DNA from: Candidatus Poribacteria bacterium
GTDB lineage: Bacteria; Poribacteria; WGA-4E; PCPOR2b
Direction: 5' to 3'
Assembly (NCBI GenBank): GCA_965205075.1
Contig: OZ242036.1
Location: 5,822,599-5,886,598 of the forward strand
DNA: 64,000 nt
This document shows positions 3,714 through 20,468 of this stretch, in pieces. The first letter of the stretch is position 1, and the number at the start of each line of letters is the position of its first letter. Position numbers and translations under genes: made by a program. A model generated the notes under the pieces. That model did not search any database. It was not told where the DNA came from and saw only the letters and a list, made by a program, of their open reading frames with translations.

Positions 3714-4571
3714 ATGCTAACTCAGCAACAGATCGACTTCTACCATGAAAATGGTTACATTGGTGTTGAAAATGTGCTTTCGGAGCAAGATATTATCGAC
3801 CTTCGTCGCGTGACAGATGAATTTGTCGAAAAATCCCGTGAAGTCACCGAACATACTGACGTTTTTGATCTTGAACCCGGTCATTCCGCAGAATCTCCCC
3901 GCGTACGCCGAATCAAAAATCCAGCAGCTCAACACATTGTCTATGATCAGGTGCGAACTTACGCCTCCATTATCGACATCGTTGAGCAATTAGTGGGGCC
4001 TGGTGTTCGTTCTATGGGCAGCAAACTGAATATGAAATACCCCGATTTTGGAAGTCCTGTTGAATGGCACCAAGATTGGGCGTTCTACCCCCATACGAAT
4101 GATGATGTGTTGGCAGTCGGTGTTGCTATTGACGATATGTCGATGGAGAATGGCGCGTTAATGGTCATTCCCGGCTCCCATAAGGGACCAATCTACGACC
4201 ATCACCAGGACGGTCGTTTCGCAGGTGCAGTCACTGACCCCAATTTTAGCCCGGACGGTGCTGTCCCCATCGCGGTCAAAGCCGGAGGCATTTCGATTCA
4301 TCATGTTCGTACCCTCCACGGCTCTGCCCCCAACATCTCTAGCACACCACGCCGCTTACTGCTCGCCGCCTACACCGCGGCTGACGCATGGCCCCTGAGC
4401 GGAGACTGGGAGGCTTTAAGTGCCAATATCCTGCGTGGTGAACTCACGAATCAGGTACGTATGGTCGAGGCTCCGGTTCGCATGGCACTTCCCCGTGCGG
4501 AGCGCGGCGGTTCAATTTACGAAACCCAGACCATTCTGAAAAAACCACTCTACACTGAGAAAACCAAGTGA
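3714..4571 (+). CDS. Phytanoyl-CoA dioxygenase (PhyH) family Fe(II)/2OG oxygenase
   Basis: 285-aa ORF with AAGGAG RBS. LTQQQIDFYHENGYIGVENVLS N-terminus, WHQDWAF (HxD) and a distal IHHVRTLHGS. Confidence 0.85.
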   Translation: MLTQQQIDFYHENGYIGVENVLSEQDIIDLRRVTDEFVEKSREVTEHTDVFDLEPGHSAESPRVRRIKNPAAQHIVYDQVRTYASIIDIVEQLVGPGVRSMGSKLNMKYPDFGSPVEWHQDWAFYPHTNDDVLAVGVAIDDMSMENGALMVIPGSHKGPIYDHHQDGRFAGAVTDPNFSPDGAVPIAVKAGGISIHHVRTLHGSAPNISSTPRRLLLAAYTAADAWPLSGDWEALSANILRGELTNQVRMVEAPVRMALPRAERGGSIYETQTILKKPLYTEKTK

Positions 4572-4780: not shown

Positions 4781-6748
4781 GTGCGCCACACATCAAACCC
4801 TCCAGCCAAACCGAATCTAACCGCACAGATTTTCAAGCTGCTTTTCATCGGTCTCGTAGTCCTACCGCTCAACAGCCTCTGGGTTGTTGACACCGGCATC
4901 ACAGGGCATGGCGTGAACTTCACGCGGGTGTCGCTGTTCATGAACGCGATCTTCCTCATCTTCGTCTTGAGTCTGATCAATCCGTGGCTCAAGCGTTATG
5001 TTCCGAGGTTCGCACTGGATTCAAGCGACATGGTGCTGATCTATGTGATGCTGTGTGTCTCGTCAGCTATCGCGGGCCACGACATGATCCAGCGACTGTT
5101 CCCGCTCATAGGACACGCATTCTATTTTGCCGCACCTGAGAATGAGTGGCAGGAACTCTTCCATCGCTATGTGCCGCATTGGCTCGTTGTTACAGATAAA
5201 TCGGTGCTGGCTGGTTACTACAAAGACCGCGGCACATTTTATGATAACACCTTTTACGTTACCGAATACTTCAACGCGTGGCTGGTGCCCTGCCTTGCAT
5301 GGTGTACCGTTATTATCGCACTGTTGATTTGTATGCTAGGCATTAACCTCCTAGTGCGCAAACACTGGACAGTCCACGAACGCCTCACCTATCCGCTCGC
5401 CCAAATACCGTTAGATATTATCAACAACGGTCCCCGCCTATTCAAAACGCGCCTAATCTGGACTGGATTTGCCCTATCTGTAGGATTCAATCTTATCAAC
5501 GGCATTCACACCCTATTCCCCGTCGCGCCAAGTATCTTTTATGGACGCTACCTTCTGAGTCAGTATTTCACCGCGAAACCATGGAACGCACTCGGTTGGA
5601 TTCCCATTGAGTTTCACCCATTCGCGATCGGGTTGGCATTCTTTATGCCGCTAGACCTCTCTTTCTCTTGTTGGTTTTTCTACTGGCTTTGGCGGCTAGA
5701 AAGGGTGGTAGGAACAGTCTTCTCTGGTGGCAGCATGTTAGCTGGGTTCCCTTTTACATGGGAGCAATCCATCGGCACTTGCGCGGCAATTTTACTTATG
5801 ACATTGTGGGGGCTGCGATTTACCGGACGGGAAATTCTACAGAGTTTTTTTAGAATGCCTACCACTGCCCAAAGCACTGGGGATCAACGACGTGAAATTC
5901 TGGACAATCGGGCGGAGATACGACGCTATCGCTGGGCAGTTTTTGGCATTTTCGCAAGCGTGAGCTATCTCATCGGGTTCTGCTACGTTGCGGGGATGTC
6001 CGTGTGGGTTTCGGCGGTCTTTTTCCTCATCTTCTTTGGGCTTTCAACGGTTGTGACACGCATCCGTGTCGAGGCAGGTTACCCGATGCACGATTTTGCG
6101 TTTCGCCCCGAGGATATTGTCGTGACAGGATTCGGCACACAAGCGGTTGGTCCCACGAGTCTCACACTATTTTCCTATCTCCACTTCTTCACTTACGCCC
6201 ATCGTAGCAATCCACAGCCACATCAATTGGAAGCATTTCGGCTGGCGGATCGGATGAATCTCTCTATCAATGGGATGCTGATTGCAGGTATCCTGATTGC
6301 TACGGTGGTTGGATCGATCGCCGCTTGTTGGGCATATCTACACACCGCTTATCAATATCAGGGGAGTACGTGGCCCGGCTGGCCCATCTTTAACCGTTTA
6401 CAAAACTGGCTAAGCTATCCGCGGGGGACGGATGTCAAATCGCTAATTTTTATGGGTGGCGGCTTCGGTATCGGGCTAGGGTTTCTGATTATGCGGCGGC
6501 TTTTTATCTGGTGGCCCTTTCATCCGGCGGGATATGTGATTGGTGGAACATGGTCGCTCAATCTCTTATGGTTTTCAATCTTTCTTAGTTGGGTAGCCAA
6601 ATTAATCATCCTTCGATTCGGTGGGCTCAAGTTGTATCGTCAGGCGAGCACGTTTTTTATCGGTCTCGTTTTGGGAGAGTTTGTAACCGCAAGTTTCTGG
6701 GGTGTGATTGGCACAATTTTGGGGCAGGCAACCTATCGATTCATCTGA
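4781..6748 (+). CDS. Uncharacterised polytopic membrane protein, paralogue 2 of 5
   Basis: 655-aa ORF with a GTG start about 13 nt after AGGAGG, so the start is uncertain. It carries the same motif set as 1437..3401 (APENEW, WTVHERLTYP, KPWNALGW, PLDLSFSCWFFYW, RVEAGYPMHD, PQPHQLEAFRLADR, WWPFHPAGY, FFIGLVLGE). Confidence 0.85.
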   Translation: MRHTSNPPAKPNLTAQIFKLLFIGLVVLPLNSLWVVDTGITGHGVNFTRVSLFMNAIFLIFVLSLINPWLKRYVPRFALDSSDMVLIYVMLCVSSAIAGHDMIQRLFPLIGHAFYFAAPENEWQELFHRYVPHWLVVTDKSVLAGYYKDRGTFYDNTFYVTEYFNAWLVPCLAWCTVIIALLICMLGINLLVRKHWTVHERLTYPLAQIPLDIINNGPRLFKTRLIWTGFALSVGFNLINGIHTLFPVAPSIFYGRYLLSQYFTAKPWNALGWIPIEFHPFAIGLAFFMPLDLSFSCWFFYWLWRLERVVGTVFSGGSMLAGFPFTWEQSIGTCAAILLMTLWGLRFTGREILQSFFRMPTTAQSTGDQRREILDNRAEIRRYRWAVFGIFASVSYLIGFCYVAGMSVWVSAVFFLIFFGLSTVVTRIRVEAGYPMHDFAFRPEDIVVTGFGTQAVGPTSLTLFSYLHFFTYAHRSNPQPHQLEAFRLADRMNLSINGMLIAGILIATVVGSIAACWAYLHTAYQYQGSTWPGWPIFNRLQNWLSYPRGTDVKSLIFMGGGFGIGLGFLIMRRLFIWWPFHPAGYVIGGTWSLNLLWFSIFLSWVAKLIILRFGGLKLYRQASTFFIGLVLGEFVTASFWGVIGTILGQATYRFI

Positions 6749-8580: not shown

Positions 8581-9393
8581 TTAACGGCCTATTTTAATAC
8601 TGCCCCAGGTGGTTGTTAATTTTTGTTTAGGCTCAACCGACAGGAGTAGACCCTTGGAATCCAACTCTACCTCCTGTTTGGTTAGGGCACGGTCATAAAG
8701 CTTAAACTCATCCATAACAAAAAAGGCAGCACGACTCGTCGTTCCACCAATGCGCAGGTGCCCTCTACCCTGAACGAAACCACGCTGAACGTTAAAATTA
8801 CCTTTTGCTTTGCCATTGATATATATCGTCAAGTTAGCAGATTTTTTGACACCTGCAATATGATACCATTTTTTCTGATCAAAACCGCCACCTTCGCCGT
8901 CAGGACCTATTGCATCAGGCCCAATCCTACCAAATTTATACACAAGGGATAGACCGGGATCAGTAAGGGAGATGCCTGGCGAATCCCCTTTCTCATCACC
9001 AACTAAGATGTTAGCCTTTTTCAAAACACTGTTAGGCGGCCGAGGAGGCGGGGCAATCAAGGGTTTAAGGACATAAAACCAAAAGGCGTAAGTGTGATCG
9101 GCGTACTTATCCATTCTGTCAAAGGAGTCAACGCGGAATTGTGCACTGATGTTGTTGAAAATTTTTAACGCCCCCGTTCCTTTGTACACCTCCGCGGGCT
9201 CATTGGTGATTGTAGCACCAAACCGGAGTTTACCATTGTTACCCCCACCGGTCAGGTCTTCAACCTTTCTTCCATCAAGCTGCTCATCAAACGTGAAATA
9301 TAGAATCATATTGGGATCTAGAGCCGCCGAGACGGAGAAAATCGTAATGGACAGAAGTGTGGTAACGAAACCTACTGCAATGAGCGTTCTCAT
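8581..9393 (-). CDS. Secreted LamG/concanavalin-A-like lectin domain protein, tandem paralogue 1
   Basis: Start moved to MRTLIAV (ATG at 9393, RBS GAAGGAAG). It has a signal peptide ending SA-ALDP. LamG_3-like signature WYHIAGVKK...IYINGK...LRIGG...FVMDEFKLYDRALT..EV. C-terminal LSVEPKQKLTTTWGSIKIGR. Confidence 0.8.
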   Translation of the reverse strand: MRTLIAVGFVTTLLSITIFSVSAALDPNMILYFTFDEQLDGRKVEDLTGGGNNGKLRFGATITNEPAEVYKGTGALKIFNNISAQFRVDSFDRMDKYADHTYAFWFYVLKPLIAPPPRPPNSVLKKANILVGDEKGDSPGISLTDPGLSLVYKFGRIGPDAIGPDGEGGGFDQKKWYHIAGVKKSANLTIYINGKAKGNFNVQRGFVQGRGHLRIGGTTSRAAFFVMDEFKLYDRALTKQEVELDSKGLLLSVEPKQKLTTTWGSIKIGR

Positions 9394-9468
9394 TTTCAAT
9401 TCTTCCTTCATCAACGGATTCGCCGGCCCCCTAGCAAAGTCAAGGCTATCCCTCTCCCTAAATAATAT

Positions 9469-9497
9469 AGCCCCAACGGATAAAATCCCTTGGGGCT
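9469..9497 (-). terminator. Hairpin downstream of LamG paralogue 2 (candidate intrinsic terminator)
   Basis: AGCCCCAACGGAT-aaa-ATCCCTTGGGGCT forms a 13-position stem with one mismatch. It lies 37 nt after the stop at 9534 on the minus strand and is followed there by AU-rich ATATTATTTA. Homologous hairpins sit behind three other paralogues. Confidence 0.45.
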
Positions 9498-9533
9498 AAA
9501 GTCGGACGGATCCAGTCTACAAAATTTCATTGA

Positions 9534-10349
9534 TTAGTGCCCTGTTTTGAGACGACCCCAAGTGGTCGTCAATTTGTCTTGTGGTTCAACCGACAGGAAT
9601 ACACCTTGTTCCATCAACTCCACCTCTTTTTCGGTCAGAATCCGATCGAACAGCGCAAACTCATCCATGGCGAAGTAGGCAGCTCGGGTCCGCGTACCGC
9701 CGATGCGGAGTCGCCCTTCACCCTGAGGGACTTTTTTGGGCACATCGAATCTCCCTTCCTCCTCGCCGTCGATGTAAATAATCAGGTCTGCTCCCTTTTT
9801 GACACCCACGATGTGATACCATCTCCTCAGTTCAAACTCCGACCCTTTACCGTCTGGACCGAGTCCGTCAATTCCACCGCCTTCACCAACCTCATACCAG
9901 AGAGTAAAGCTGTTTCCGCTAATCTGGACGGAGGGCGATTTTGAAAAGCCTGCGTTGAGTACTTGCGCTTCATCGGCATTTTTCTTGAAGATCGATCGCG
10001 CCTCACCTTGATGAAATCCTTCAAAGAAATAGATCCAAAAGGCGATGGTGTGATCTTGATACTTATTCATGCGATCAAAGGGTTCGACGCGGAATTGTGC
10101 ACTGATATTCCCTGCAATTTTTAGAGCACCGGCCCCTTTGTAGACTTCCTCTGGCTCATTGGTGAGTGTTGCACCCAGTCTGAGTTTCCCATCGTTGCCG
10201 CCGCCGGTTAGGTCCGCAACCTTCCTTCCATCCAGCTGCTCATCAAACGAGAAATACAAAATCAAATTCGGATCTAGAGCCGCTTGGGCAGAGAGAACCG
10301 TTATGAACAGAAACATGGTAATGAAATTCAACCGAATAAACGTTCTCAT
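9534..10349 (-). CDS. Secreted LamG/ConA-like domain protein, tandem paralogue 2
   Basis: Start moved to MRTFIRL (ATG 10349). The AGGAGG RBS directly follows the TAA stop of paralogue 3. Same N- and C-terminal conserved blocks; tail LSVEPQDKLTTTWGRLKTGH. Confidence 0.8.
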   Translation of the reverse strand: MRTFIRLNFITMFLFITVLSAQAALDPNLILYFSFDEQLDGRKVADLTGGGNDGKLRLGATLTNEPEEVYKGAGALKIAGNISAQFRVEPFDRMNKYQDHTIAFWIYFFEGFHQGEARSIFKKNADEAQVLNAGFSKSPSVQISGNSFTLWYEVGEGGGIDGLGPDGKGSEFELRRWYHIVGVKKGADLIIYIDGEEEGRFDVPKKVPQGEGRLRIGGTRTRAAYFAMDEFALFDRILTEKEVELMEQGVFLSVEPQDKLTTTWGRLKTGH

Positions 10350-10363
10350 TTGTGACTCCTCCT

Positions 10364-11161
10364 TTAACGACCAGTTTTGATGTGGCTCCAAGTGGTTGTC
10401 AATTTGGCTTGCGGCTCGACAGACAAGAATATCCCCTTAAAAACTGCCGTCACTTCTTTCTCGGTTAAGGGACGGTCGTAAAGTTGAAACTCGTCCATCG
10501 CAAAAGAGGCAGCTCGGCTCGTCGTTCCGCCGATACGAAGTTGCCCCTTACCCTGAATAAAGTCTCGTTTGACCTTAAAATTGCCTTTTTCTTCGCCGTT
10601 GATGTAGATGATAAGGTCGCTTGCCTTTTTGACACCCGCGATGTGATACCACGTCTCTAGGTTAAAACCTTTACCCTTACCGGCGGGGCCAACTGCATCA
10701 ACCCCCTGGCCGTCAAATTTGTATTCAAGTGCTAGACCGGGATCGGTCAGAAAGATGCCTGGCGCGCTCCCTTTCTCCTCACCAACTAAAATGTTGGCCT
10801 TTTTCAAAATACTTGATCGTGCACCCATGGGGTTGAATATATAAATCCAAAAGGCGTAGGTGTTATCTCCATACTTATCCATTCGGTCAAACTCTTCCAC
10901 ACGAAGTTGTGCACTGACGTTGTTGAAGAGTTTAAGAGCACCTACCCCTTTGTGGACCTCTGCGGGTTCGTTGGTGATTTTGGCACCAAACCGCAGCTTA
11001 CCGTCGTTACCGCCGCCGGTCATGTCTTCGACCTTTCTTCCATCGAGCTGCTCTTCAAACGTGAAATACAGAATCAAATTTGGATCTAGAGCCGCCGGGG
11101 CAGAAAAAATCGTCATGACCAGAAACGTCGTGATGAAACTTACCGTAATAAGCGTTCTCAT
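10364..11161 (-). CDS. Secreted LamG/ConA-like domain protein, tandem paralogue 3
   Basis: ATG at 11161 with AAGGAGGAA RBS; the ORF-track start is an upstream TTG. Signal peptide present; tail LSVEPQAKLTTTWSHIKTGR. Confidence 0.8.
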   Translation of the reverse strand: MRTLITVSFITTFLVMTIFSAPAALDPNLILYFTFEEQLDGRKVEDMTGGGNDGKLRFGAKITNEPAEVHKGVGALKLFNNVSAQLRVEEFDRMDKYGDNTYAFWIYIFNPMGARSSILKKANILVGEEKGSAPGIFLTDPGLALEYKFDGQGVDAVGPAGKGKGFNLETWYHIAGVKKASDLIIYINGEEKGNFKVKRDFIQGKGQLRIGGTTSRAASFAMDEFQLYDRPLTEKEVTAVFKGIFLSVEPQAKLTTTWSHIKTGR

Positions 11162-11271
11162 TTTCAATTCCTCCTTTGATCGTTCGATATTAAACTTTCA
11201 TCAATTGAACAACACACATCAGCAGCTCCATCGGTGTCCTACCAAAGTCAAAACTATTCTTAAAATAATAT

Positions 11272-11300
11272 AGCCCCGAAGAATACAATCCCTCGGGGCT
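11272..11300 (-). terminator. Hairpin downstream of LamG paralogue 4 (candidate intrinsic terminator)
   Basis: AGCCCCGA...TCGGGGCT stem, homologous to the hairpin at 9469..9497. Confidence 0.4.
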
Positions 11301-11345
11301 AAAACCGAACGCCTTCCACCTAACATACTATCAGAACTTTATCGA

Positions 11346-12164
11346 TTAGCGATCCGTTTTGAGATTCCCCCAAGTGGTCGTCAATTTTCTTTGAGGTTCG
11401 ACCGACAGGAGTATGCCTTTGGCATCCAACGCCACCTCTTGTTCGGTTAGGGGACGGTCATAAAGCTGAAACTCATCCATCGCAAAAGAGGCGGATCGTA
11501 TATTCGTTGCGCCAATACGAAGGTGCCCCTTACCTTGGACGAAATCGCGGTTAACCTTATGTCTACCTTCTTGTTTGCCATCAATGTAGATTATCAGGGC
11601 TGATCCCTGTTTGACACCCGCGATGTGATACCATTTGTTCAATTCAAACTTTTCACCTTTGCCGCCGGGACCGACCGCTTCAATCCCTATAGCCCCTTGG
11701 TCGCCAAATTTATATACCAGTGATAGACCGGGATCGGTAATCCAGATGGCTGGCGCATGACCTTTGTGAGCCTGCCCTATAACGTTACCCTTTTCCACAA
11801 CGCTTCCCTGTACACAACATGGATCTTTTCTGACACCGTATACATAGAGCCAAAAGGTGAAGGTGTTATCTCCATACTTATTCATCCGGTCAAACTCGTC
11901 CACACGGAACTGAGCACTAATGTTGTTGAAAATTTTTAACGCCCCCGTCCCTTTGTATACCTCTGCGGGTTCGTTGGTGATTTTGGCACCCAACTTGAGT
12001 TTCCCATCGTTCCCGCCGCCGGTCATGTCTTCGACCATCTTCCCATCCAGCTGCTCATCAAACGAGAAATACAAAATCATGTTTGGATCTAGAGCTGCTG
12101 GGACAGAAAGAACCATTATGACTAGGAATATGGTGATGCAACTTAACGCAATAAGCGTTCTCAT
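11346..12164 (-). CDS. Secreted LamG/ConA-like domain protein, tandem paralogue 4
   Basis: 272-aa ORF starting MRTLIALS. It has a VRKDPCC loop insert and the tail LSVEPQRKLTTTWGNLKTDR. Confidence 0.8.
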   Translation of the reverse strand: MRTLIALSCITIFLVIMVLSVPAALDPNMILYFSFDEQLDGKMVEDMTGGGNDGKLKLGAKITNEPAEVYKGTGALKIFNNISAQFRVDEFDRMNKYGDNTFTFWLYVYGVRKDPCCVQGSVVEKGNVIGQAHKGHAPAIWITDPGLSLVYKFGDQGAIGIEAVGPGGKGEKFELNKWYHIAGVKQGSALIIYIDGKQEGRHKVNRDFVQGKGHLRIGATNIRSASFAMDEFQLYDRPLTEQEVALDAKGILLSVEPQRKLTTTWGNLKTDR

Positions 12165-12279
12165 TTTTAATTCCTCCTTTGATCGTTTGATATTGAACTT
12201 TAGTCAATTAAACAACGCACATCAACAGATCTATTGTAGACCTGCAAAGTCAAGGCTATCCCCCTTTCTCAAATGACAT

Positions 12280-12308
12280 AACCCCAATGGATAAAATCCT
12301 TCGGGGCT
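12280..12308 (-). terminator. Degenerate copy of the inter-paralogue hairpin (downstream of paralogue 5)
   Basis: AACCCCAATGGAT-aaa-ATCCTTCGGGGCT. Same architecture as 9469..9497 but with extra mismatches. Confidence 0.3.
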
Positions 12309-12354
12309 AAAATTGACTGCATCCAGTCTAACATACTATTTGGAGCTCCATCGG

Positions 12355-13170
12355 CTAACGTCCTGTTTTGAGATGCCCCCATGTGGTAGTCAATTTTGTC
12401 TCTGGTTCGACTGACAGGAACTGCCCCTTAGCATCCAACTTCACCTCTTGTTCACTTAAGGCGCGGGTATAAAGCCCAAACTCATCCATCGCAAAAGAGG
12501 CGGCTCGAATCCGCGATCCGCCGATCCGCAGATGCCCCTTACCCTGAACGAAATCACGCTTGACGGCATATTTGGCTTCTTGTTTCCCGTCAATATAGAT
12601 TATTAGGTCTGCTCCCTTTTTGACACCTGCGATGTGATACCATTTGTTCAGTTCAAACTTTTCACCCTCACCGCCGGGACCGACTCCAAGCCCTACAGCT
12701 CCTTGGTCGCCAAATTTATATGTAAGTCCTAGCCCCGGATCAGTCACAAAGATGGCTGGCGAGTTCCCTTTCACATCACCAACTAAAATATTGGCTTTTT
12801 GCAGAACAATTTCCTCTGGACAACACGGATCGTTTCTTACACTGTATATGTAAAGCCAAAAGGTGTAGGTGTTCTCTTTATAGTTATCCATTTCCCTAAA
12901 GGACTCGACGAGGAACTGAGCACTGATGTTGTTGAAAATTTTTAACGCGCCCGCTCCTTTGTATACCTCTGCGGGTTCGTTGGTGATTTTAGCGCCCAAC
13001 TTGAGTTTTCCATCATTCCCGCCACCGGTCAGGTCTGCAACCATCCTTCCATCAAGTTGTTCATCAAATGCGAAATACAAAATCATCTCCGGATCCAGAG
13101 CCGCCGAGGTAGAGAGAGCCATCATAACTAGAAGCATGATGGCGAAACTTACCGTGATAAGTGTTTTCAT
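12355..13170 (-). CDS. Secreted LamG/ConA-like domain protein, tandem paralogue 5
   Basis: ATG at 13170 (MKTLITV) after AAAGGAGGAG. VRNDPCCPEE loop; tail LSVEPETKLTTTWGHLKTGR. Confidence 0.8.
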   Translation of the reverse strand: MKTLITVSFAIMLLVMMALSTSAALDPEMILYFAFDEQLDGRMVADLTGGGNDGKLKLGAKITNEPAEVYKGAGALKIFNNISAQFLVESFREMDNYKENTYTFWLYIYSVRNDPCCPEEIVLQKANILVGDVKGNSPAIFVTDPGLGLTYKFGDQGAVGLGVGPGGEGEKFELNKWYHIAGVKKGADLIIYIDGKQEAKYAVKRDFVQGKGHLRIGGSRIRAASFAMDEFGLYTRALSEQEVKLDAKGQFLSVEPETKLTTTWGHLKTGR

Positions 13171-13312
13171 TTTCAACTCCTCCTTTTATACGGAATTTAG
13201 GTTGAGTAATAAGTCAACTGTTGTAACATTTTGCACCCCCGATAAATCGGGAGCCCTCTCAAAATCTTCTCTGTAGTTGAAATGGTTGAGACCCTACTGT
13301 CCAAAATGATAT

Positions 13313-13342
13313 AGCCCTGATGGATAAAAATCCTTCAGGGCT
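13313..13342 (-). terminator. Hairpin downstream of LamG paralogue 6 (candidate intrinsic terminator)
   Basis: AGCCCTGA-tggataaaaatcct-TCAGGGCT. Homologous position and sequence to the other inter-paralogue hairpins. Confidence 0.4.
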
Positions 13343-13387
13343 AAAATAGGATGGATTTCACCTAACATACCATCAAAGGGCCATCGG

Positions 13388-14206
13388 TTAACGACCTGTT
13401 TTGAGATGCCCCCAAGTGGTCGTCAATTTTCTTTCGGGTTCAACCGATAGAAATATACCTTTGGAATCCATCTTTACCTCTGCTTCGGTTAAGGCGCGAT
13501 TATAAAGCCCAAACTCATCCATGGCAAAAGAAGCGGCTCGTTGCCGCGTTCCACCGATACGCAGATGCCCTTTACCCTGAACGAAATCGCGTTGGACCTT
13601 ATACCTCGCTTCTTCTTTACCATCAATATACATTGTTAGGCTTGTTCCCTGTTTGACCCCCGCGATGTGATACCATTTTTTTAATTCAAATGGTTGACCC
13701 TTGCCGCCGGGACCGACCGCCTCACCCTCAATAGCCCCTTGGTCGGTAAATTTATATACCAGAGTTAGTCCTGGATCGGTTATAAAGATACCCGGCGCGC
13801 TCCCCTTGTCAGCAGCATCCATAACATTGGCTTTTTTGAGGATACTTTCCACTGCACAACACGGATCATTTCTGACACTGTATATGTAGAGCCAAAAGGT
13901 GTAGGTGTTTTCTCTATAGTTATCCATCTCCTTAAAAGACTCAACGAGGACCTGAGCACTGATGTTTTGGAATATTTTTAACGCCCCTGCTCCTTTGTAC
14001 ACTTCTTCGGGTTCGTTAGTAATTTTGGCACCTAACTTGAGTTTTCCGTCGTTCCCGCCGCCGGTTAGGTCTTCAACCTTCCTTCCATCCAGCTGCTCGT
14101 CAAATGCGAAATACAAAATCATGTTCGGATCTATAGCCGCCGGAACAGAGCAAACCGTTACGGCAACAAAGGTAATAAGGAAACTGAACCAAATAAACGT
14201 TCTCAT
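13388..14206 (-). CDS. Secreted LamG/ConA-like domain protein, tandem paralogue 6
   Basis: 272-aa ORF starting MRTFIWF. VRNDPCCAVES loop; tail LSVEPERKLTTTWGHLKTGR. Confidence 0.8.
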   Translation of the reverse strand: MRTFIWFSFLITFVAVTVCSVPAAIDPNMILYFAFDEQLDGRKVEDLTGGGNDGKLKLGAKITNEPEEVYKGAGALKIFQNISAQVLVESFKEMDNYRENTYTFWLYIYSVRNDPCCAVESILKKANVMDAADKGSAPGIFITDPGLTLVYKFTDQGAIEGEAVGPGGKGQPFELKKWYHIAGVKQGTSLTMYIDGKEEARYKVQRDFVQGKGHLRIGGTRQRAASFAMDEFGLYNRALTEAEVKMDSKGIFLSVEPERKLTTTWGHLKTGR

Positions 14207-14302
14207 TTTTAATTCCTCCTTTTTCCGGTTTAGGTTTTCTGTTTAGGTTGAATGGTACTCAACTTAAGCTAGTTAGTGTGGTATTATCAGAGGTTCCATC
14301 GG

Positions 14303-15169
14303 TCAACGATTGGTTTTGATATCGCCCCAGGTGGTTGTCACTCTTCTTTCAGGTTCAACCGACAGAAGTATGCCTTTGGCATCCAACGCTACTTCCTTTT
14401 CGGTTAAGGCCCGGTCATAAAGGGAAAACTCATCCATGATGAAATTGGCAGAACGTTCCCGCGTGCCACCAATACGCAGTAACGCCTCGCCCTGAACGAA
14501 ATCTCTTGGGACATCAAATCTGCCTTGCTCCTTGCCGTTGATATAGATTATCAACTCGTTTGCCTTTTTGACGCCCGCGACGTAATACCACTTCTTGAAC
14601 TCAAACACCGTACCGTTGCCACCGGGACCGATTATTCCTTTGGCTCCTATAGCCCCTTGGAGCCCGCCGCCCCCTTTATCTTCAAATTGATAGATAAGGG
14701 CTAACGGTTCCTCCTGAAGCAAGATGCCCGGTGCCCAACCTTTCACATTGCCCTCTAGAACTCTGCCCTTTTCCAGAATGCTTGCCCTACCTTCTCCACA
14801 GGTTCCGCCACAATGTTCCCAATTCCAAGGCTTAGCGGTGTTACCTAAGATATAGATCCAGAAGGTATAGGTGTTATCTTTATACTCATTCATTCTCTTA
14901 AAGGGTTCTACGCGGACCTGAGCGCTAATGTTCGTGAATTTAACCGCCCCCGCCCCCTTATAAACCTCCTCGGGCTCGTTGGTAATCTTGGCACCCAACT
15001 TGAGTTTCCCGTTGTTTCCCCCGCCGGTCAAATCTGCTATCTGCTTACCATCAAGCTGCTCGTCAAACGAGAACCATAAAAGCATGTTCGGATCTATGGC
15101 AGCTGGTGCAGAGAGAATAATCATAAACAGAAATGTAGTGATCAAGCTCGCCCATATAAACGTTTTCAT
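14303..15169 (-). CDS. Secreted LamG/ConA-like domain protein, tandem paralogue 7 (longest variable loop)
   Basis: Start moved to MKTFIWASL (ATG 15169, RBS GGAAAGGAAAGG). Loop NTAKPWNWEHCGGTCGEGRAS; tail LSVEPERRVTTTWGDIKTNR. Confidence 0.75.
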   Translation of the reverse strand: MKTFIWASLITTFLFMIILSAPAAIDPNMLLWFSFDEQLDGKQIADLTGGGNNGKLKLGAKITNEPEEVYKGAGAVKFTNISAQVRVEPFKRMNEYKDNTYTFWIYILGNTAKPWNWEHCGGTCGEGRASILEKGRVLEGNVKGWAPGILLQEEPLALIYQFEDKGGGGLQGAIGAKGIIGPGGNGTVFEFKKWYYVAGVKKANELIIYINGKEQGRFDVPRDFVQGEALLRIGGTRERSANFIMDEFSLYDRALTEKEVALDAKGILLSVEPERRVTTTWGDIKTNR

Positions 15170-15236
15170 TCTTAACCTTTCCTTTCCCAAATCCGTCAAT
15201 CTATTTCAATTAAACCGCCCTAAAAAAATTAAACTC

Positions 15237-15266
15237 ATCGTATCACATCCATTAAATACATGTCAA
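15237..15266 (-). promoter_or_regulatory. Candidate sigma70-type promoter for LamG paralogue 7
   Basis: Minus strand reads TTGACA, then an 18-nt spacer, then TACGAT. It lies about 70 nt upstream of ATG 15169 in an AT-rich divergent intergenic region. Confidence 0.3.
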
Positions 15267-15285
15267 GAAAAAATTAAATTTTAGA

Positions 15286-15314
15286 TCGACATATTTTTGC
15301 TTTAGTATTATAAT
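15286..15314 (+). promoter_or_regulatory. Candidate sigma70-type promoter for the divergent LamG-like gene at 15493
   Basis: TCGACA, then a 17-nt spacer, then TATAAT, read directly from the sequence. It would give a ~170-nt leader. Confidence 0.35.
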
Positions 15315-15492
15315 TAATTCCTGATGTAATAATCTGCAGAGATTTGCAATGAAATGAGCAGATTCGCAGCGGTTATAGCGTTCAGCATAACTTCGGTTGG
15401 TTAATGAGATTGGCAAACGAATCGCCATTCGTGCGGACAATGTGTCGGCCAATGCAAATTTCTGGAATAACTACAAACAGGAGGATATTCAA

Positions 15493-16293
15493 ATGCAAAG
15501 GTTGAAGAGATTTCCAATCAGCACCCTGGTTCTTATCTTTTTGATAGGCTTGTTGCCATCCTTGGGATATAGCCAGATCCAATTGGATGACCCGCTCCTC
15601 GTATTCTACTTTCCTCTTAATGAAGGCAAAGGGGATATAATAAAAGACCTCGGTCCCAACCAGCTTGAGGGAGAGCTTGAAGGCGGCCCAGCATGGGTCG
15701 ATTCCGTAGATCCGAAATTTGGCACCTCCCTCTCGTTTATAGATGGAAAAGAGCAATCGGGCTTCGTAGCAGATGTTCCTGCTTTGGATCTCGGCGAATC
15801 GGATACCACCCTCGCTGCTTGGGTTAAGACTGGCAAAGAGGTAGGCCAGGGATTTGTTTATATCAAGTGGGATGGCGGTGGCTGGTATATCAAGCTAAGG
15901 GATAAGAAACTCTACACCCGCTATCACATACCTGCGCCAGTCGGCTTTGGTGCTGAAATTCCTAGCAAAACTGAGATTGCCGATGACGTATGGCATCATG
16001 TCGCCTCAATGCGTACAAACAAAGAGACGGTTCAGCTATTTATTGATGGCAAACTAGACCATAAGGATGATGCGGGTTCAGCACCCGGTTCCGCTAATAC
16101 CCCCGCCAATTTGGAAATTGGTCGGTTTAAAGAGGAGCGTTTCTGGGATGGAGAGTTTGATGAACTTTTCCTGATGAAGAGAAATTTGACAAATGCCGAA
16201 CTTCAACTGTTGATGGACGGACAGTTTTTAGCAGTTGAATCGAAGGGCAAACTTCCTCTCACTTGGGGTAGTCTCAAAGCTGCTAGGGATTAA
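15493..16293 (+). CDS. Secreted LamG/ConA-like domain protein, divergent eighth member
   Basis: Start moved to MQRLKRFPIS (ATG 15493, RBS CAGGAGGA), with a signal peptide. WHHVASMR...LFIDGK and FDELFLMKRNLTNAEL LamG signature. Tail FLAVESKGKLPLTWGSLKAARD. Confidence 0.75.
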   Translation: MQRLKRFPISTLVLIFLIGLLPSLGYSQIQLDDPLLVFYFPLNEGKGDIIKDLGPNQLEGELEGGPAWVDSVDPKFGTSLSFIDGKEQSGFVADVPALDLGESDTTLAAWVKTGKEVGQGFVYIKWDGGGWYIKLRDKKLYTRYHIPAPVGFGAEIPSKTEIADDVWHHVASMRTNKETVQLFIDGKLDHKDDAGSAPGSANTPANLEIGRFKEERFWDGEFDELFLMKRNLTNAELQLLMDGQFLAVESKGKLPLTWGSLKAARD

Positions 16294-16477
16294 TGAGGCA
16301 GCGTTAGAAATTTCTCCATTGTCCAAATGTCCAAATTTTACACTTAAGAAGATATGCAAATAATAGGAAAGCGGGCTGAATTTGAGGCGCGTTTTCAAAA
16401 CAAATTGCGGTGAGGGACCTGCCGAATGCATTCGTGCAGATTTCTCGCCGCAATTTTTTATTGGGAGAAATCTGTGG

Positions 16478-18268
16478 ATGAAAAAAGTGCTGATTATGTT
16501 GATTGGGCTTGTGGCAATTAACATCGCAGGTAGGCAGATTGCTTGGACGCAGCAAACAGATTCTGTTGCCGAATCTACCGATGAAAATCAGATCACCTTG
16601 GCTGAGTATCAATGGAACGACCAAAACTTTGAGATTTCGCTTGCGGGTTTCAAGGCGGCGATTGGAGAGTTGTCAATCTTCCAGCAGGAAAACTACGCAA
16701 GTAAAGCCGGGAAGACAGAATACCTGCCAGAGTTCATTGACGAGAAACTAAAAGTCCTCGAAGCGATAGATAAGGGGTTGGATAAAGATGAAGATATACT
16801 CAAGAAGGCGCAGGAGTACAAACACACGCTCTTAATCGAGCGCCTGACGAAGATTGAGGTCGATGAAAAAGTTTTTCCCACGGAGGAGGACCGGCGGCAG
16901 TATTACGAGGCGCACAAATCGGAATACGTTGAGGAAGCTGCAGCACGAGTAACCTGCATCAGTGTCTTGGAAAAAACGCTCGCGCAGGAGGCATTGGCAC
17001 AAATCAAAGCTGGAGTAGACATCAGTGAGCTAGCAAAAGAACTGTCAGAAAAAGACAAACTATTTGGTCCCGGGGGCAACAAGCTAGATCCAGGGAACAC
17101 TGGGCTCTTTACCAAAGACGAATCCGAAGACTGGCAGGTTTTTGTCGATGCCGCTTTTGACATGGAGGTCGGCGAAATCACCGAAGAAATCCTTGAACTT
17201 GAAATAGATCCCGAAACGTACTACCTCATTTTCCGCAAGGAGGAGCACATACCGGAACGCATAGCGGATTTTGAGGAGGTCAGAGACTATATTGAACCCT
17301 CCGTTAAGCGTCAAAAAAAACGGGAGCGAATCATTGAATGGGTGGCAGAAGTTACCTCGACAAGCGAACTGAAAGCCTACCCGGAACGGGTTCCTGAAGC
17401 AGTGTTAGACCAAGAGAAACCGGTGACAAATGCGGAAAGTATTGTCATCGCAGAGTTTGATTGCGACGGAAAGCAGCAAATTACGCTTGCTGAAATGATA
17501 CAAGACATTCGCGAACTCTCGGAGGATAGACCGGAGCGCTATAAAGACAAAGCACGCCTTGAAGAATATGTGACCCTGATGGCGGAAGGGCGCTTAATAC
17601 TCTGTCTCGCCAAAGCCCGGAAGCTCGAAGAAGAACCAGAAATCCAAAAAAAATACCGAAGGTATCTCCACTCGCTGCTAGCCAATAAACTCTGGAAAAT
17701 CGAAGTCGAGCAGAAAGTCGAAGTGACAGAGGAAGACATACAAGCCAACTATGCAGCGCGTAAAAGCGAGTTTGCCGAAGAGGAGCAGGTGAGATTAACC
17801 TGTGTCACGCTTAGGGATAGTGATCGTGCGAAGGAAGTGTTTGAATCGATTCAGGCGGGCAAAGATATAGTAGAAGTGGCGAAGGAGTTGTCAGATACCG
17901 GAGAATTGACCGGTCCCGGCGCGGATCCCCTCAACCCCGGCGATACCGGTTACCTGACCCGCGACACCTTTCCGAAAGAGCAGCAAGCCTTTACTGACGC
18001 CGCCTTTACGATAGAAGTGGGACAGACTGTTGATGACATCATGACTGTCAGCTTTCAAGGCAGGCAATACTATACAATTTTCCGAAAAGAAGAACATAAT
18101 CCAGCAACCCAAAAAACGCTCGACGATTCAGAGGTCCGGCGGATAGTGACAGCTGATACCCAAACAGAGATGCGCGATGCACTTACCGCCAAGCTACACA
18201 CTCAACTTCGTAATAAAGCGAAACTCAAAATATATTTTGACCGAATTCCGGAGGGGTCAGATAAGTGA
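16478..18268 (+). CDS. Peptidyl-prolyl isomerase, SurA/PrsA/PpiD-like, with two parvulin-like modules
   Basis: Start moved to MKKVLIMLIGLVAI (signal or anchor). An internally duplicated module contains (A)RVTCI(S/T)...IKAG.DI.E(L/V)AKELS..G.L.GPG...PG(N/D)TG...F.DAAF..EVG......YY.IFRKEEH. Confidence 0.6.
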   Translation: MKKVLIMLIGLVAINIAGRQIAWTQQTDSVAESTDENQITLAEYQWNDQNFEISLAGFKAAIGELSIFQQENYASKAGKTEYLPEFIDEKLKVLEAIDKGLDKDEDILKKAQEYKHTLLIERLTKIEVDEKVFPTEEDRRQYYEAHKSEYVEEAAARVTCISVLEKTLAQEALAQIKAGVDISELAKELSEKDKLFGPGGNKLDPGNTGLFTKDESEDWQVFVDAAFDMEVGEITEEILELEIDPETYYLIFRKEEHIPERIADFEEVRDYIEPSVKRQKKRERIIEWVAEVTSTSELKAYPERVPEAVLDQEKPVTNAESIVIAEFDCDGKQQITLAEMIQDIRELSEDRPERYKDKARLEEYVTLMAEGRLILCLAKARKLEEEPEIQKKYRRYLHSLLANKLWKIEVEQKVEVTEEDIQANYAARKSEFAEEEQVRLTCVTLRDSDRAKEVFESIQAGKDIVEVAKELSDTGELTGPGADPLNPGDTGYLTRDTFPKEQQAFTDAAFTIEVGQTVDDIMTVSFQGRQYYTIFRKEEHNPATQKTLDDSEVRRIVTADTQTEMRDALTAKLHTQLRNKAKLKIYFDRIPEGSDK

Positions 18269-18385: not shown

Positions 18386-19165
18386 ATGATGCAATCAATT
18401 AGTGACAGTCAATGGGAGCAATTCAAGGAGGAGGGCTATCTCCTGCTCGGTAGAGTGATGGACGATGAAGAACTCACTACCTTGCAGCAGCGCATTGATG
18501 ACATTATGATGGGCAAAGCCAAACTTCCCTACGATCAGATAATGATGCAAATTGATGGTAAGACCAGCGACTACAGTAAGATGGAACCGATGACCAAGGG
18601 GCACAAAGGTCCGTCGTTAAACTATCGTAAGATCACCGAACTGGAGCTTGACCCATTCTTCTTGTCGTATATGCAAAAACCTGCCTTCCGGGATATTTGT
18701 GCTAGAGCCTACGGTCCCTCTACCTCGGTTGCTACCCCGCGTGCAATGTTTATGAATAAGCCGGCCGACACAGGAACTCACCTGCCTTGGCATCAGGATG
18801 TATTTCGGAACCTTGACACACTTTCAGACATTATCATCTGGGCGGCGCTGGATCCCGCGACCCTTGATAGTGGCTGTCTCAGAGTAATTCCCAAATCTCA
18901 TCACCGCATCTATGAAGGAAACTTCCCCACGGAAGAACAGTTGGAAACCCTCTTCGCGGTGGCGGATCCCGTCACCCTTGAATTACAACCGGGCGAGGGG
19001 GTATTGCTGCACGTCAACCTGATTCACACTTCTGCGGTGAATGATACCGGTTTGCCACGGCGGGCATTCAGCGTTGCTTATGTAGATGCTGCGGCTAGGA
19101 CCAACGATGGCCAGCCTCTCCCCACTATTTTTGGCGAAGATGCCTTAACCCCGCAATTCAACTAA
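18386..19165 (+). CDS. Phytanoyl-CoA dioxygenase (PhyH) family Fe(II)/2OG oxygenase
   Basis: 259-aa ORF with AGGAGG RBS. SDSQWEQFKEEGYLLLGRVM N-terminus, LPWHQDVF (HxD) and NLIHTSAVN. Confidence 0.8.
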   Translation: MMQSISDSQWEQFKEEGYLLLGRVMDDEELTTLQQRIDDIMMGKAKLPYDQIMMQIDGKTSDYSKMEPMTKGHKGPSLNYRKITELELDPFFLSYMQKPAFRDICARAYGPSTSVATPRAMFMNKPADTGTHLPWHQDVFRNLDTLSDIIIWAALDPATLDSGCLRVIPKSHHRIYEGNFPTEEQLETLFAVADPVTLELQPGEGVLLHVNLIHTSAVNDTGLPRRAFSVAYVDAAARTNDGQPLPTIFGEDALTPQFN

Positions 19166-19317: not shown

Positions 19318-19413
19318 CTCCTTCACCGCCAAGAATCGCTCACTCTTTGTTGTATTCAAGGATAGCCACACCTCGACGTGCCAGTCAAAACTAATTTCAC
19401 AGGGGAACGTTTA

Positions 19414-20358
19414 ATGCACAAAGATTCTGATGGAAAATCTGCATACAGCATGGGGCTACTTATCATCTTGATTGCTTCACTATGGCTGGGTTGTGGAAAT
19501 GATGAGCCAGAGAGTGAAGCCCCTCCTGACAGAATTGTCGGTAACGACATGGCGGAAATGGTGCTGATTCCTGCTGGGGAGTTTGAAATGGGTGATCCCT
19601 TCAACGAAGGTACTACCTATGAACGCCCCGTTCACACCGTCTTCATTGACGATTTCTATATTGATGTCTACGAAGTGACCAACGTGATGTATGCGAAGTT
19701 TCTTACTGCGATGGGGAAGCATGTGGGGGATACGGGTCATATCTGGTTGGATATTGGCGACGGTGACGAGATGATTGAATTGGTTGGCGAGCAATACCGA
19801 CCGAAGGCAGGATTTGAAGAGTATGCCGTAGTTGAAGTGAGTTGGTACGGTGCAGCGGCGTATGCCCAGTGGGCAGGCAAACGCCTACCGACCGAAGCGG
19901 AGTGGGAGAAAGCCGCCCGTGGTGGGCAGGTCAGGGAACGGTATCCGTGGGGAGATGATGAGCCTGATGGAAGTCAGTGTAACTACGCGGATAAGAATAC
20001 AAGCTATTCTTGGTCAGATCAAACCGCTGACGATGGTTACCAAACAACCGCTCCTGTGGGTCTATATCCACCAAATGACTACGAGTTGTACGACATCGCT
20101 GGAAACGTATGGGAATGGTGCGTAGACGAATTGGATGTAGAGTATTACGAAAATAGTCCAAGAGAGAACCCTGTGTCAGGCGGAACTACACTCTTGATGC
20201 CTGATAACTTCAATAATATTAGGGAACGTCGCATACTTCGCGGCGGTTCGTGGCACAGCACCCCGGAGATCCTCCGTGTGGCGTATCGTTACAGCAGCGA
20301 ACCTGCGGTCACGCTCAGTTACTTTGGCTTTCGTTGCGTAGCCCCTGTTGATCCTTAG
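19414..20358 (+). CDS. Formylglycine-generating-enzyme (SUMF1/FGE-sulfatase) family protein, secreted or lipid-anchored
   Basis: Start moved to MHKDSDGKS. MVLIPAGEFEMGD, YIDVYEVTN, WYGAAAYAQWAGKRLPTEAEWEKAARGG, GNVWEWC, RGGSW and FGFRC are the classic FGE-family blocks. Confidence 0.85.
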   Translation: MHKDSDGKSAYSMGLLIILIASLWLGCGNDEPESEAPPDRIVGNDMAEMVLIPAGEFEMGDPFNEGTTYERPVHTVFIDDFYIDVYEVTNVMYAKFLTAMGKHVGDTGHIWLDIGDGDEMIELVGEQYRPKAGFEEYAVVEVSWYGAAAYAQWAGKRLPTEAEWEKAARGGQVRERYPWGDDEPDGSQCNYADKNTSYSWSDQTADDGYQTTAPVGLYPPNDYELYDIAGNVWEWCVDELDVEYYENSPRENPVSGGTTLLMPDNFNNIRERRILRGGSWHSTPEILRVAYRYSSEPAVTLSYFGFRCVAPVDP

Positions 20359-20468
20359 TCCTATTTTAGCTTCTGAACAATTCGCGTTATGATATTCTCA
20401 TGCCATTATCGAAAACTCCTTTAGGTCTAAAACCCAAGCGTTCTCGGCTTGCGGAAAAAGCTAACCCC

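Follow-up and report, generated by a model that had tools for sequence, protein, structure and literature searches.

The closest described relatives of the proteins considered here are stand-alone bacterial Laminin_G_3 (LamG-like jellyroll) proteins and, by fold, two non-catalytic jelly-roll domains, namely the HCN subdomain of clostridial neurotoxins, NTNH and PMP1, whose own ligand is uncertain, and the lectin-like domain of trypanosomal (trans-)sialidases. A single C-terminal element shared by diverse extracytoplasmic modules with an N-terminal Sec signal is known from dockerins, the C-terminal domain of the type IX secretion system (T9SS), SLH domains and the signals of sortases, exosortases and rhombosortases. 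Neighbouring paralogous non-catalytic modules with different loops are known from the surface glycan-binding or CBM-only multigene families of polysaccharide degraders. The locus described here belongs to a member of Candidatus Poribacteria, the dominant uncultivated sponge symbionts, and lies in a stretch of 64,000 nucleotides (contig OZ242036.1, positions 5,822,599 to 5,886,598; referred to as the window). It encodes seven tandem proteins and a divergent eighth one (p1-p7 and p0), all with an export-type N-terminus, one LamG_3 domain and the same short C-terminal tail. With somewhat better than even confidence, we read the locus as a set of exported binding modules of differing specificity that are joined to one envelope partner by a portable tag.

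An array of exported-type LamG_3 proteins

Seven successive open reading frames (ORFs) of the minus strand span positions 8581-15199. Long ORFs with TTG starts exaggerate the gene lengths of the seven tandem copies; ATG starts are preferred, yielding genes at 8581-15169, and a AAAGGAGG box precedes every ATG of the tandem genes in the alignment of the upstream regions. For p0, the ATG at 15493, 8 nt past AGGAGG, is the likely start.

14303..15169, minus strand: p1, first array gene, 288 aa, exported-type LamG_3 protein with the longest variable insert (containing CxxxC); Laminin_G_3 E 1.3e-13; orthologous clade across genomes
13388..14206, minus strand: p2, 272 aa, exported-type LamG_3 protein with vicinal Cys-Cys in the variable loop (ORF, alignment, Pfam, tree)
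12355..13170, minus strand: p3, 271 aa, exported-type LamG_3 protein with vicinal Cys-Cys in the variable loop (ORF, alignment, Pfam, tree)
11346..12164, minus strand: p4, 272 aa, exported-type LamG_3 protein, reference copy for region numbering
10364..11161, minus strand: p5, 265 aa, shortest variable region of the array (ORF, alignment, Pfam)
9534..10349, minus strand: p6, 271 aa, exported-type LamG_3 protein (ORF, alignment, Pfam, tree)
8581..9393, minus strand: p7, last array gene, 270 aa, modelled in its mature form by AlphaFold2 (AF2)
15493..16293, plus strand: p0, divergent eighth member, 266 aa, Laminin_G_3 E 4.4e-18, one copy per genome, tail LAVESKGKLPLTWGSLKAARD
15170..15492, no strand: divergent AT-rich intergenic region between p1 and p0

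A sequence-only reading of this DNA had described seven head-to-tail genes on the minus strand plus a divergently transcribed eighth; coordinates and strands hold, with protein lengths of 265-288 aa. The motifs it quoted, i.e., AA(L/I)DP, ILYFxFDEQLDG..TGGGN(D/N)GKL, WYHIxGVK, LRIGG and MDEFxLYxRxL(T/S), are all visible in the alignment, and the AT-rich region proposed to be shared by p1 and p0 has a GC content of 34.7 % (measured over 15170-15489) versus 48.8 % in the window. The LamG/ConA-like assignment was likewise borne out by a beta-sandwich model, lectin-like structural matches (see below) and Laminin_G_3 (PF13385) scores of 51.8-66.3 bits (E 1e-13 to 4e-18) in 8/8 proteins, all above the Pfam gathering score of 27.6 bits.

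The seven tandem copies share 58-70 % pairwise amino acid identity (~70 % at the DNA level), and 28 % with p0. Numbered on p4, the proteins comprise a signal peptide (residues 1-24), an N-terminal block (N-block, 25-98), a variable region (99-176), a C-terminal core (177-246) and the tail (247-272). Copies p2, p3 and p4 have a vicinal Cys-Cys pair (DPCC) in their variable loop, and the long insert of p1 contains a C-x3-C; no cysteine occurs in the mature chains of p0, p5, p6 and p7. A vicinal disulfide near the presumed binding face of p2-p4 would be an unusual, rigid loop feature.

The predicted signal peptides of the sequence-only reading are supported by the anatomy of the N-termini: a basic n-region and a hydrophobic h-region, with a hydrophobic stretch of ~17 residues, precede a Q/P/S-A-A|(L/I)DP junction in 96/102 family members, the corresponding junction of p0 being QIQ-LDDP where the tandem copies have AA(L/I)DP. 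Export was called from a basic n-region, an h-region of at least 10 hydrophobic residues, small residues at -1/-3 and the lack of a lipobox; judged by this sequence anatomy, the array proteins have the features of Sec/signal peptidase I export. Cleavage one residue before the xAA|(L/I)DP point is equally possible as cleavage at the junction itself. The aligned N-termini of the eight window proteins show no lipobox, and on this basis the proteins are judged not to be lipoproteins. In 93/102 family members, the mature part contains 0 or 2 cysteines, fitting an oxidising compartment.

The C-terminal tail

All eight window proteins, p0 included, finish in LSVEPxxKLTTTWGx(L/I)KTGR in the alignment, with a core of ~20 residues, [AS]-V-E-P-x-x-K-L-T-T-T-W-G-x-(I/L)-K-x-x. 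This tail, the most unusual feature of the locus, had been overlooked in the sequence-only reading.

8584..8643, minus strand: tail of p7 as an example, final 20 codons (LSVEPKQKLTTTWGSIKIGR; alignment)
9537-9596, 10367-10426, 11349-11408, 12358-12417, 13391-13450 and 14306-14365, minus strand: tails of the other tandem copies (alignment)
16231-16290, plus strand: tail of p0 (alignment)

No model of Pfam or NCBIfam matched the tail, even at E 10, and a literature search yielded nothing on this LamG family, the tag or the array. Thus, the tag looks undescribed.

Exhaustive searching of 1.84 billion representative proteins with a profile of the tail only retrieved 65 proteins, all but one of them at most 300 aa long with the match at the extreme C-terminus; the lone internal match, in a 1647-aa repeat protein, was judged spurious. 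Among the hosts are LamG_3 proteins that share under 50 % identity with the window family, as well as META and DUF3108-like proteins. Metagenomes were scanned at the DNA level with a degenerate pattern encoding V-[DE]-x3-K-L-[TASP]-T-T-W-G-x-hydrophobic-K, which returned at least 120 loci; all metagenome counts below are among the matches listed. A stop codon follows 0-9 residues past the motif in 124/124 occurrences, and a relaxed motif was found 125 times at the C-terminus and 0 times internally. Tagged host proteins mostly measure 240-290 aa, and 79 of the 98 full-length hosts have signal-peptide-like N-termini. Their bodies were assigned by Pfam as follows (hosts out of the 98).

Laminin_G_3: 54 hosts
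3-keto-disaccharide-hydrolase/DUF1080-like: 8 hosts
F5/8 type C (discoidin): 7 hosts
CBM9: 4 hosts
GH59-C lectin: 4 hosts
Pentaxin: 3 hosts
CBM4_9: 2 hosts
Kelch: 2 hosts
DUF4960: 2 hosts

Scans of single proteins bore out these body types and added one Big_5 host. Since the GC content of the listed loci spans 0.33-0.64 and at least one contig name indicates groundwater, the tail occurs in several lineages and environments. On this distribution of sequences, the tail is a portable, obligately C-terminal tag of small modules of predicted exported and binding type.

Tagged genes form head-to-tail pairs or arrays at 13 of the listed metagenome loci. Recurrent amplification in another lineage is shown by locus L027 (6785-10009 on a contig of 4.2 Mb; L028 has the same), where a related family of LamG plus tail, with 263 aa, has independently and recently formed a tandem array of three copies. 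Its mature chains have two cysteines each, a TPR protein follows the array, and the repeated spacers hold called ORFs of ~100 aa, probably spurious.

Three further architectures were observed. An open frame of 682 aa (L082, 377-2422; L147, 4488-6533) comprises regions 2 and 4 of an extracytoplasmic function (ECF) sigma factor, a Kelch beta-propeller and the C-terminal tag; it is either a fusion of sigma/anti-sigma-like type or two genes joined by an over-extended ORF call. Protein P0176 (55 aa) is hardly more than a signal-peptide-like N-terminus plus tag, and P0140 (100 aa) has two tandem tag-like motifs; these two could be mis-called fragments or minimal and duplicated tags, respectively.

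Fold and nearest structures

The AF2 model of mature p7 (mean predicted local distance difference test, pLDDT, 87.2; predicted template modelling score, pTM, 0.85) was built from a diverse alignment and replaced an earlier one from a shallow alignment (pLDDT 66.9). It shows a confident all-beta sandwich over mature residues 1-225, predicted to be a two-sheet jelly roll with a Foldseek probability of 1.0 to ConA-like lectin domains. The near-invariant N-terminal block pointed out previously corresponds in the model to the opening strands of the LamG_3 sandwich (pLDDT 88-96), while the least confident internal segment is a hypervariable loop at mature residues 101-110. The tail has a pLDDT of ~47 and stays below 50 in both AF2 models; it is predicted to be flexible and not packed against the domain.

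Top Foldseek matches are non-catalytic lectin-like domains (TMq 0.6-0.65), i.e., those of trypanosomal sialidases, the HCN subdomain of clostridial neurotoxin/NTNH, the Hc of PMP1 and the accessory domain of a GH43 enzyme. The family profile also matched PMP1 Hc (6hox) in the PDB (E 5.7e-15). Toxin_R_bind_N (PF07953) had no match at E <=0.1 among the window copies and matched 6/98 distant tagged relatives among those listed at E <=0.001 (best 5.8e-7); judged by these profile matches, the relation of the window copies to the receptor-binding subdomain of clostridial neurotoxins is at the superfamily level only. We know of no diagnostic sugar-binding motif in Laminin_G_3. The array proteins may act as lectins and may have a role in host interaction; that CBM9, CBM4_9, discoidin and GH59-C lectin bodies carry the tail as well supports sugar binding indirectly.

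Conservation and evolution of the array

Scanning one genome per species with a family-specific search yielded strong matches in 14 loci, every one from Candidatus Poribacteria and most on single 5-7 Mb chromosomes; seven further loci were weak generic LamG matches (E 1e-12 to 1e-14 versus the family profile). With a hidden Markov model (HMM) from the eight window proteins, each of the 14 loci was found to have one divergent gene plus 4-9 tandem genes, including a frameshifted copy in L005 and in L009 and a truncated one in L012. Gene order is kept in all 14, i.e., major facilitator superfamily (MFS) transporter, array, p0, SurA-like peptidyl-prolyl isomerase (PPIase) and PhyH. Most flanking proteins are 84-98 % identical to those of the window, the PPIase only 66-88 %. 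At 90 % identity, the database holds at least 285 tandem-type clusters and only 11 of p0 type; sources that name any member call it 'hypothetical protein'.

An assembly artefact or collapsed repeat, a concern raised by the sequence-only reading itself, was ruled out by the synteny in 14 genomes, many of them single, closed chromosomes of 5-7 Mb with 5-10 family genes on a single contig, and by the merely ~70 % DNA identity between copies. The birth-and-death mode suggested there is supported by the variation in tandem copy number (4-9) and the broken copies in three genomes. Lineage-specific gains were observed for L007 (p3/p4), L008 (p2/p3) and L011 (extra copies), and losses for L008, L010 and L012.

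In a neighbour-joining tree of 110 full-length copies, proteins group by array position and not by genome, indicating that the duplications are older than the species; the same grouping rules out concerted evolution by gene conversion. Orthologues from eight close genomes (Nei-Gojobori method) have ratios of nonsynonymous to synonymous substitution (dN/dS) of 0.09-0.15 per copy for the whole gene, 0.06 for the N-block and 0.13 for the variable centre, with a relaxed value of 0.53 in the signal-peptide region; flanking genes range from 0.04 to 0.10, and the PPIase has 0.14. Between paralogues, dN is 0.45 in the central loop region and 0.14 in the N-block. A parsimony count over the tree found a significant synonymous excess at 189/272 codons and a nominal nonsynonymous excess at 2/272; of these two sites, the first belongs to the signal peptide and the second to the linker that precedes the tail, with none in the variable region. 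Paralogues differ mainly in ~80 central residues, which are fixed within an orthologous group and different between groups: alignment columns that combine at least 4 paralogue-specific states with conservation of at least 90 % inside the orthologous groups number 19 in the variable region, 1 in the N-block and 0 in the tail.

The proposal that the array is under diversifying selection, taken as ongoing selection, did not withstand the per-site dN/dS analysis suggested along with it: values of ~0.13 among orthologues, purifying selection at most codons, excess sites only outside the variable loops, residues fixed within groups and orthologous clades for the array positions led to its rejection at the level of both region and site. 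Low dN/dS, clean positional clades and lack of homogenisation also distinguish the array from contingency or antigenic-variation families. Instead, the copies look like old, fixed and functionally distinct paralogues. This corrects the tempting default that tandem secreted paralogues imply an arms race.

Proposed function and alternative explanations

According to our interpretation, the locus would encode a Poribacteria-specific battery of exported single-domain LamG_3 proteins with concanavalin A-like jelly roll, seven in tandem here and 4-9 elsewhere, always with one divergent member. Sec would take the proteins over the inner membrane, with cleavage around xAA|(L/I)DP, and the variable loops would give each paralogue its own ligand specificity. 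The most likely ligands would be glycans or glycoconjugates, derived from either the sponge matrix or polysaccharide substrates. The tail would serve as a docking or sorting handle that tethers interchangeable modules to a common envelope partner, which may be a surface anchor, an export step or a membrane complex. Thus, the array would represent a fixed specificity panel with one address label and not an antigenic-variation system. If so, the panel of eight modules, each with its fixed loop set, provides concrete candidates for how Poribacteria engage the host matrix. The tail is in any case a sequence-searchable marker of small, probably extracytoplasmic binding proteins (LamG, DUF1080-like, discoidin, CBM9, CBM4_9, Kelch) from many environments; its recogniser, once found, could reveal a new route for display or retention of binding modules in Gram-negative-type bacteria and would allow thousands of proteins now labelled 'hypothetical' or 'LamG domain-containing' to be annotated better.

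Several points weigh against this interpretation. The binding function is derived from the fold and from the bodies that bear the tail, and the export call from signal-peptide anatomy. The tail has no hydrophobic segment and fits no known sorting signal, such that a sorting role is suggested by analogy only; its low pLDDT could mean a segment that folds on binding or merely a limit of the model. Classical sorting signals also decorate giant adhesins, unlike the tail, which is confined to small proteins, mostly of at most 300 aa, so that an intrinsic role (e.g., oligomerisation) fits about as well. Furthermore, no untagged neighbour recurs convincingly among the 120 listed loci, the candidates belonging mostly to abundant families.

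One may speculate further, with the odds leaning against it, that the tail, generalized as [ASP]-V-[ED]-[PSA]-x-x-K-L-[TAS]-T-T-W-G-x-(I/L/V/M)-K-x(0-9)-COOH, serves as the signal recognised by an undescribed sorting, surface-attachment or docking pathway in Poribacteria and varied uncultivated environmental bacteria. It would then correspond to the T9SS C-terminal domain or to dockerin, in a short form that lacks a transmembrane segment and is dedicated to small glycan-binding modules, and the array of Poribacteria would be its largest conserved client set. Among described signals, -CTERM sorting signals (LPXTG, PEP-CTERM, GlyGly-CTERM), in which a hydrophobic transmembrane segment and a basic cluster come after a short motif, differ from the tail, which is polar/amphipathic, ends 0-9 residues past the invariant lysine and has no NCBIfam match. 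The T9SS C-terminal domain, an Ig-like beta-sandwich of ~70-100 residues, is not indicated either, with only ~20 residues, predicted to be flexible, after the LamG domain and no NCBIfam match (TIGR04183 and TIGR04131 being the models for this domain). The beta-signal of outer-membrane proteins, a terminal beta-strand of a beta-barrel protein with an aromatic residue at its end, is at variance with the soluble sandwich body of the model and with final residues drawn for the most part from K, R, N, E and G. Reading the tail as a cargo peptide of encapsulins or microcompartments, given its loose resemblance to the encapsulin cargo motif LTVGSLK, was dropped in view of the Sec-type signal peptides and paired cysteines of the proteins.

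Alternatively, the tail could be an assembly element, its C-terminal hairpin being inserted into the adjacent subunit through strand exchange or donor-strand complementation, with the paralogues building a hetero-oligomeric ring, fibre or surface lattice comparable to pentraxins or pilus subunits. The near-restriction of the tail to small single-domain proteins would agree with this, and a constant N-block and tail around a variable centre, a paralogue stoichiometry that is stable from species to species and purifying selection fit obligate subunits; in addition, some tagged LamG relatives have Pentaxin matches, and p1 and p7 weakly match the LamG-containing fimbrial protein TafC (E ~1e-3, far below the cutoff). 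However, a common acceptor groove is unlikely for a tail that is present on unrelated folds (discoidin, CBM9, Kelch, META), and many genomes and loci have a single tagged gene, such that we regard assembly as unlikely.

The proteins could also be periplasmic substrate-capture modules, the tail either docking onto an inner-membrane complex (e.g., DUF6785/DUF6784) as solute-binding proteins do onto transporters, or being tethered to peptidoglycan through its invariant lysine as in Braun's lipoprotein (Lpp). With nothing but a Sec signal, the periplasm is the expected destination, and genes for DUF6785/6784 proteins occur five times in the window, beside distant tagged genes in L026 and at 8/120 listed metagenome loci; tethering would be in line with an invariant lysine located 0-9 residues from the C-terminus. 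But the enrichment of DUF6785 is modest, the window genes are not arranged operon-like next to the array, and we know of no system that works in this manner. In Lpp, the linking lysine is the last residue, whereas only 5/124 listed tails finish at lysine. Overall, periplasmic docking or tethering is improbable.

Returning to the specificity panel as the preferred interpretation, its fixed character contrasts with the birth-and-death view of host or prey interaction surfaces under diversifying selection, i.e., a repertoire for an arms race or antigenic variation. The 4-9 tandem copies with a frameshifted or truncated copy in three genomes, the strongest divergence of paralogues in the central loop region (dN 0.45 vs. 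0.14) and the lifestyle as sponge symbiont would suit such a repertoire; it is opposed by positional orthology across species, orthologue dN/dS of 0.09-0.15 (0.13 in the variable region), purifying selection at 189/272 sites, no nonsynonymous excess in the variable region and variable residues that are fixed within orthologous groups. We consider it decidedly improbable, a least supported rival that is largely refuted for ongoing selection. Finally, a role as ConA-like glucanase-type enzymes (glycoside hydrolases or lyases), conceivable from the membership of Laminin_G_3 in the 'lectin/glucanases' superfamily (Pfam), the 3-keto-disaccharide-hydrolase-like bodies on some tagged proteins and the carbohydrate-degrading habit of Poribacteria, is very improbable, as the nearest structures are non-catalytic and lectin-like, GH16 chains are only marginal in the PDB profile search (E 0.04-0.6), the GH16-type ExDxxE motif was not seen by eye in the alignment of the eight copies, and the top conserved acidic motifs (FDEQLDG, MDEF) are generic structural motifs of LamG_3.

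Expression signals and intergenic hairpins

A GC-rich hairpin of 37-38 nt, each with a T-rich tail, is repeated in four spacers of the array; energies are from folding three of the four.

13309..13346, minus strand: terminator-like hairpin 3' of p2, then a TTGAC-type box upstream of p3
12276..12312, minus strand: hairpin 3' of p3, -17.0 kcal/mol, then GGATAGCCTTGACTTTG
11268..11304, minus strand: hairpin 3' of p4, -22.5 kcal/mol, 14 bp stem, T-rich tail, then TTTTGACTTTG
9465..9501, minus strand: hairpin 3' of p6, -22.3 kcal/mol, then GGATAGCCTTGACTTTG

A conserved TTGACTTTG box follows three of the four hairpins, and every array gene has a strong Shine-Dalgarno box. Since several genes carry their own hairpin and TTGAC box, the duplicated unit appears to be a gene with its own expression signals, the repeated element probably being a terminator plus promoter copied along with each gene; the hairpin, which has no Rfam match at E <=1, may also be a REP-like or regulatory element. 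The stop codon of p5 lies 14 nt ahead of the start of p6; with a spacer this short, the two are probably co-transcribed, as may also be the case for p1-p2 (96 nt spacer, no hairpin). The divergent intergenic region 15170..15492 contains promoter-type matches on the minus strand (TTGACA-18-TACGAT, 15266..15237) and the plus strand (TCGACA-17-TATAAT, 15286..15314). Matches to promoter and terminator consensus sequences in the region are in no excess over shuffled sequence; their counts were not used, and the evidence for expression signals is the unit of hairpin and TTGAC box that recurs in the aligned sequences.

Neighbouring genes and partner search

The following genes flank the array.

512-1387 and 3714-4571: PhyH dioxygenases, alternating with the DUF6785/6784-type genes
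1437-3401 and 4781-6748, plus strand: DUF6785 plus DUF6784 membrane proteins, confirmed by Pfam
16382..18268, plus strand: SurA/PrsA-like parvulin PPIase with two Rotamase modules, co-directional with p0 and syntenic in all 14 genomes
18386-19165, plus strand: PhyH-like dioxygenase just 3' of the PPIase gene
19378-20358, plus strand: FGE-sulfatase-type enzyme, 3' of the PPIase gene
20400-21608, plus strand: TnpB/IS605 OrfB (Cas12f-like), between the FGE-sulfatase and WelO5-like genes
21709-22548, plus strand: WelO5-like 2OG/Fe(II) halogenase or hydroxylase, 3' of the PPIase gene
23813-25729, plus strand: DUF6785/6784-type membrane protein, 36 % identity to 4781-6748
25887-27806 and 27894-29876, plus strand: DUF6785/6784-type membrane proteins, assigned by similar size and position only

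The PPIase diverges faster than most flanking gene products (66-88 % vs. mostly 84-98 % identity; dN/dS 0.14), and its two parvulin modules look like an internal duplication. Its context makes it a candidate for a periplasmic chaperone dedicated to the array proteins. As universal partner of the tag it found no support: the synteny is restricted to Poribacteria, the gene is absent beside the L027 array and it does not recur in the 120 listed loci.

Untagged neighbour families at these 120 loci include GFO/IDH/MocA (14), TPR (12), DUF6785+DUF6784 (8) and FGE-sulfatase (4). Only DUF6785/6784 is uncommon in general, representing a lead and not evidence. The window encodes five such paralogous multi-pass proteins of ~640-655 aa, all on the plus strand, and in L026 such a gene adjoins that of a distant tagged LamG protein; a literature search found no paper mentioning DUF6785.

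The tnpB gene is missing from its spot in L008 and L010, and probably in L012, where ~300 nt separate the flanking genes. The LamG array of L012 harbours a TnpB-like fragment (67 % identity; 9462-9773). Its occurrence there and the position of TnpB near the array of the window indicate that insertion elements visit the region.

Comparison with known systems

Like stand-alone bacterial Laminin_G_3 proteins, the whole mature chain of the window proteins is one LamG_3 domain (52-66 bits), with the N-terminal motif hydrophobic-x-Y/W-F-x-F-D-E..G..v.D.sG.GN.G.l and the C-terminal iDEf.lY.RaLt..Ev. In contrast to these, the window family is specific to Poribacteria, occupies a positionally conserved locus of 5-10 genes and has the tag on every member. 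The HCN subdomain and the trypanosomal sialidase domain, the best profile and fold matches, are non-catalytic jelly rolls too, but sit inside large multidomain toxins or enzymes, whereas the window proteins are free-standing, of exported type and tagged.

The surface glycan-binding families of polysaccharide degraders share with the array the neighbouring paralogous modules with different loops. However, the array is without a linked SusC/D, glycoside hydrolase or transporter operon, its neighbours being the MFS transporter, the PPIase, PhyH dioxygenases and DUF6785 proteins, and the aligned N-termini speak against lipoproteins.

By analogy, the tag resembles a known kind of element, the C-terminal address or docking module, as represented by dockerins, the T9SS C-terminal domain, SLH domains and the sortase, exosortase and rhombosortase signals, all of which place one C-terminal element on diverse modules with an N-terminal Sec signal. 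It differs from them in comprising only ~20 residues, with no transmembrane helix, no Ca-binding repeats and no Ig-like fold, and in its restriction to small, mostly single-domain proteins.

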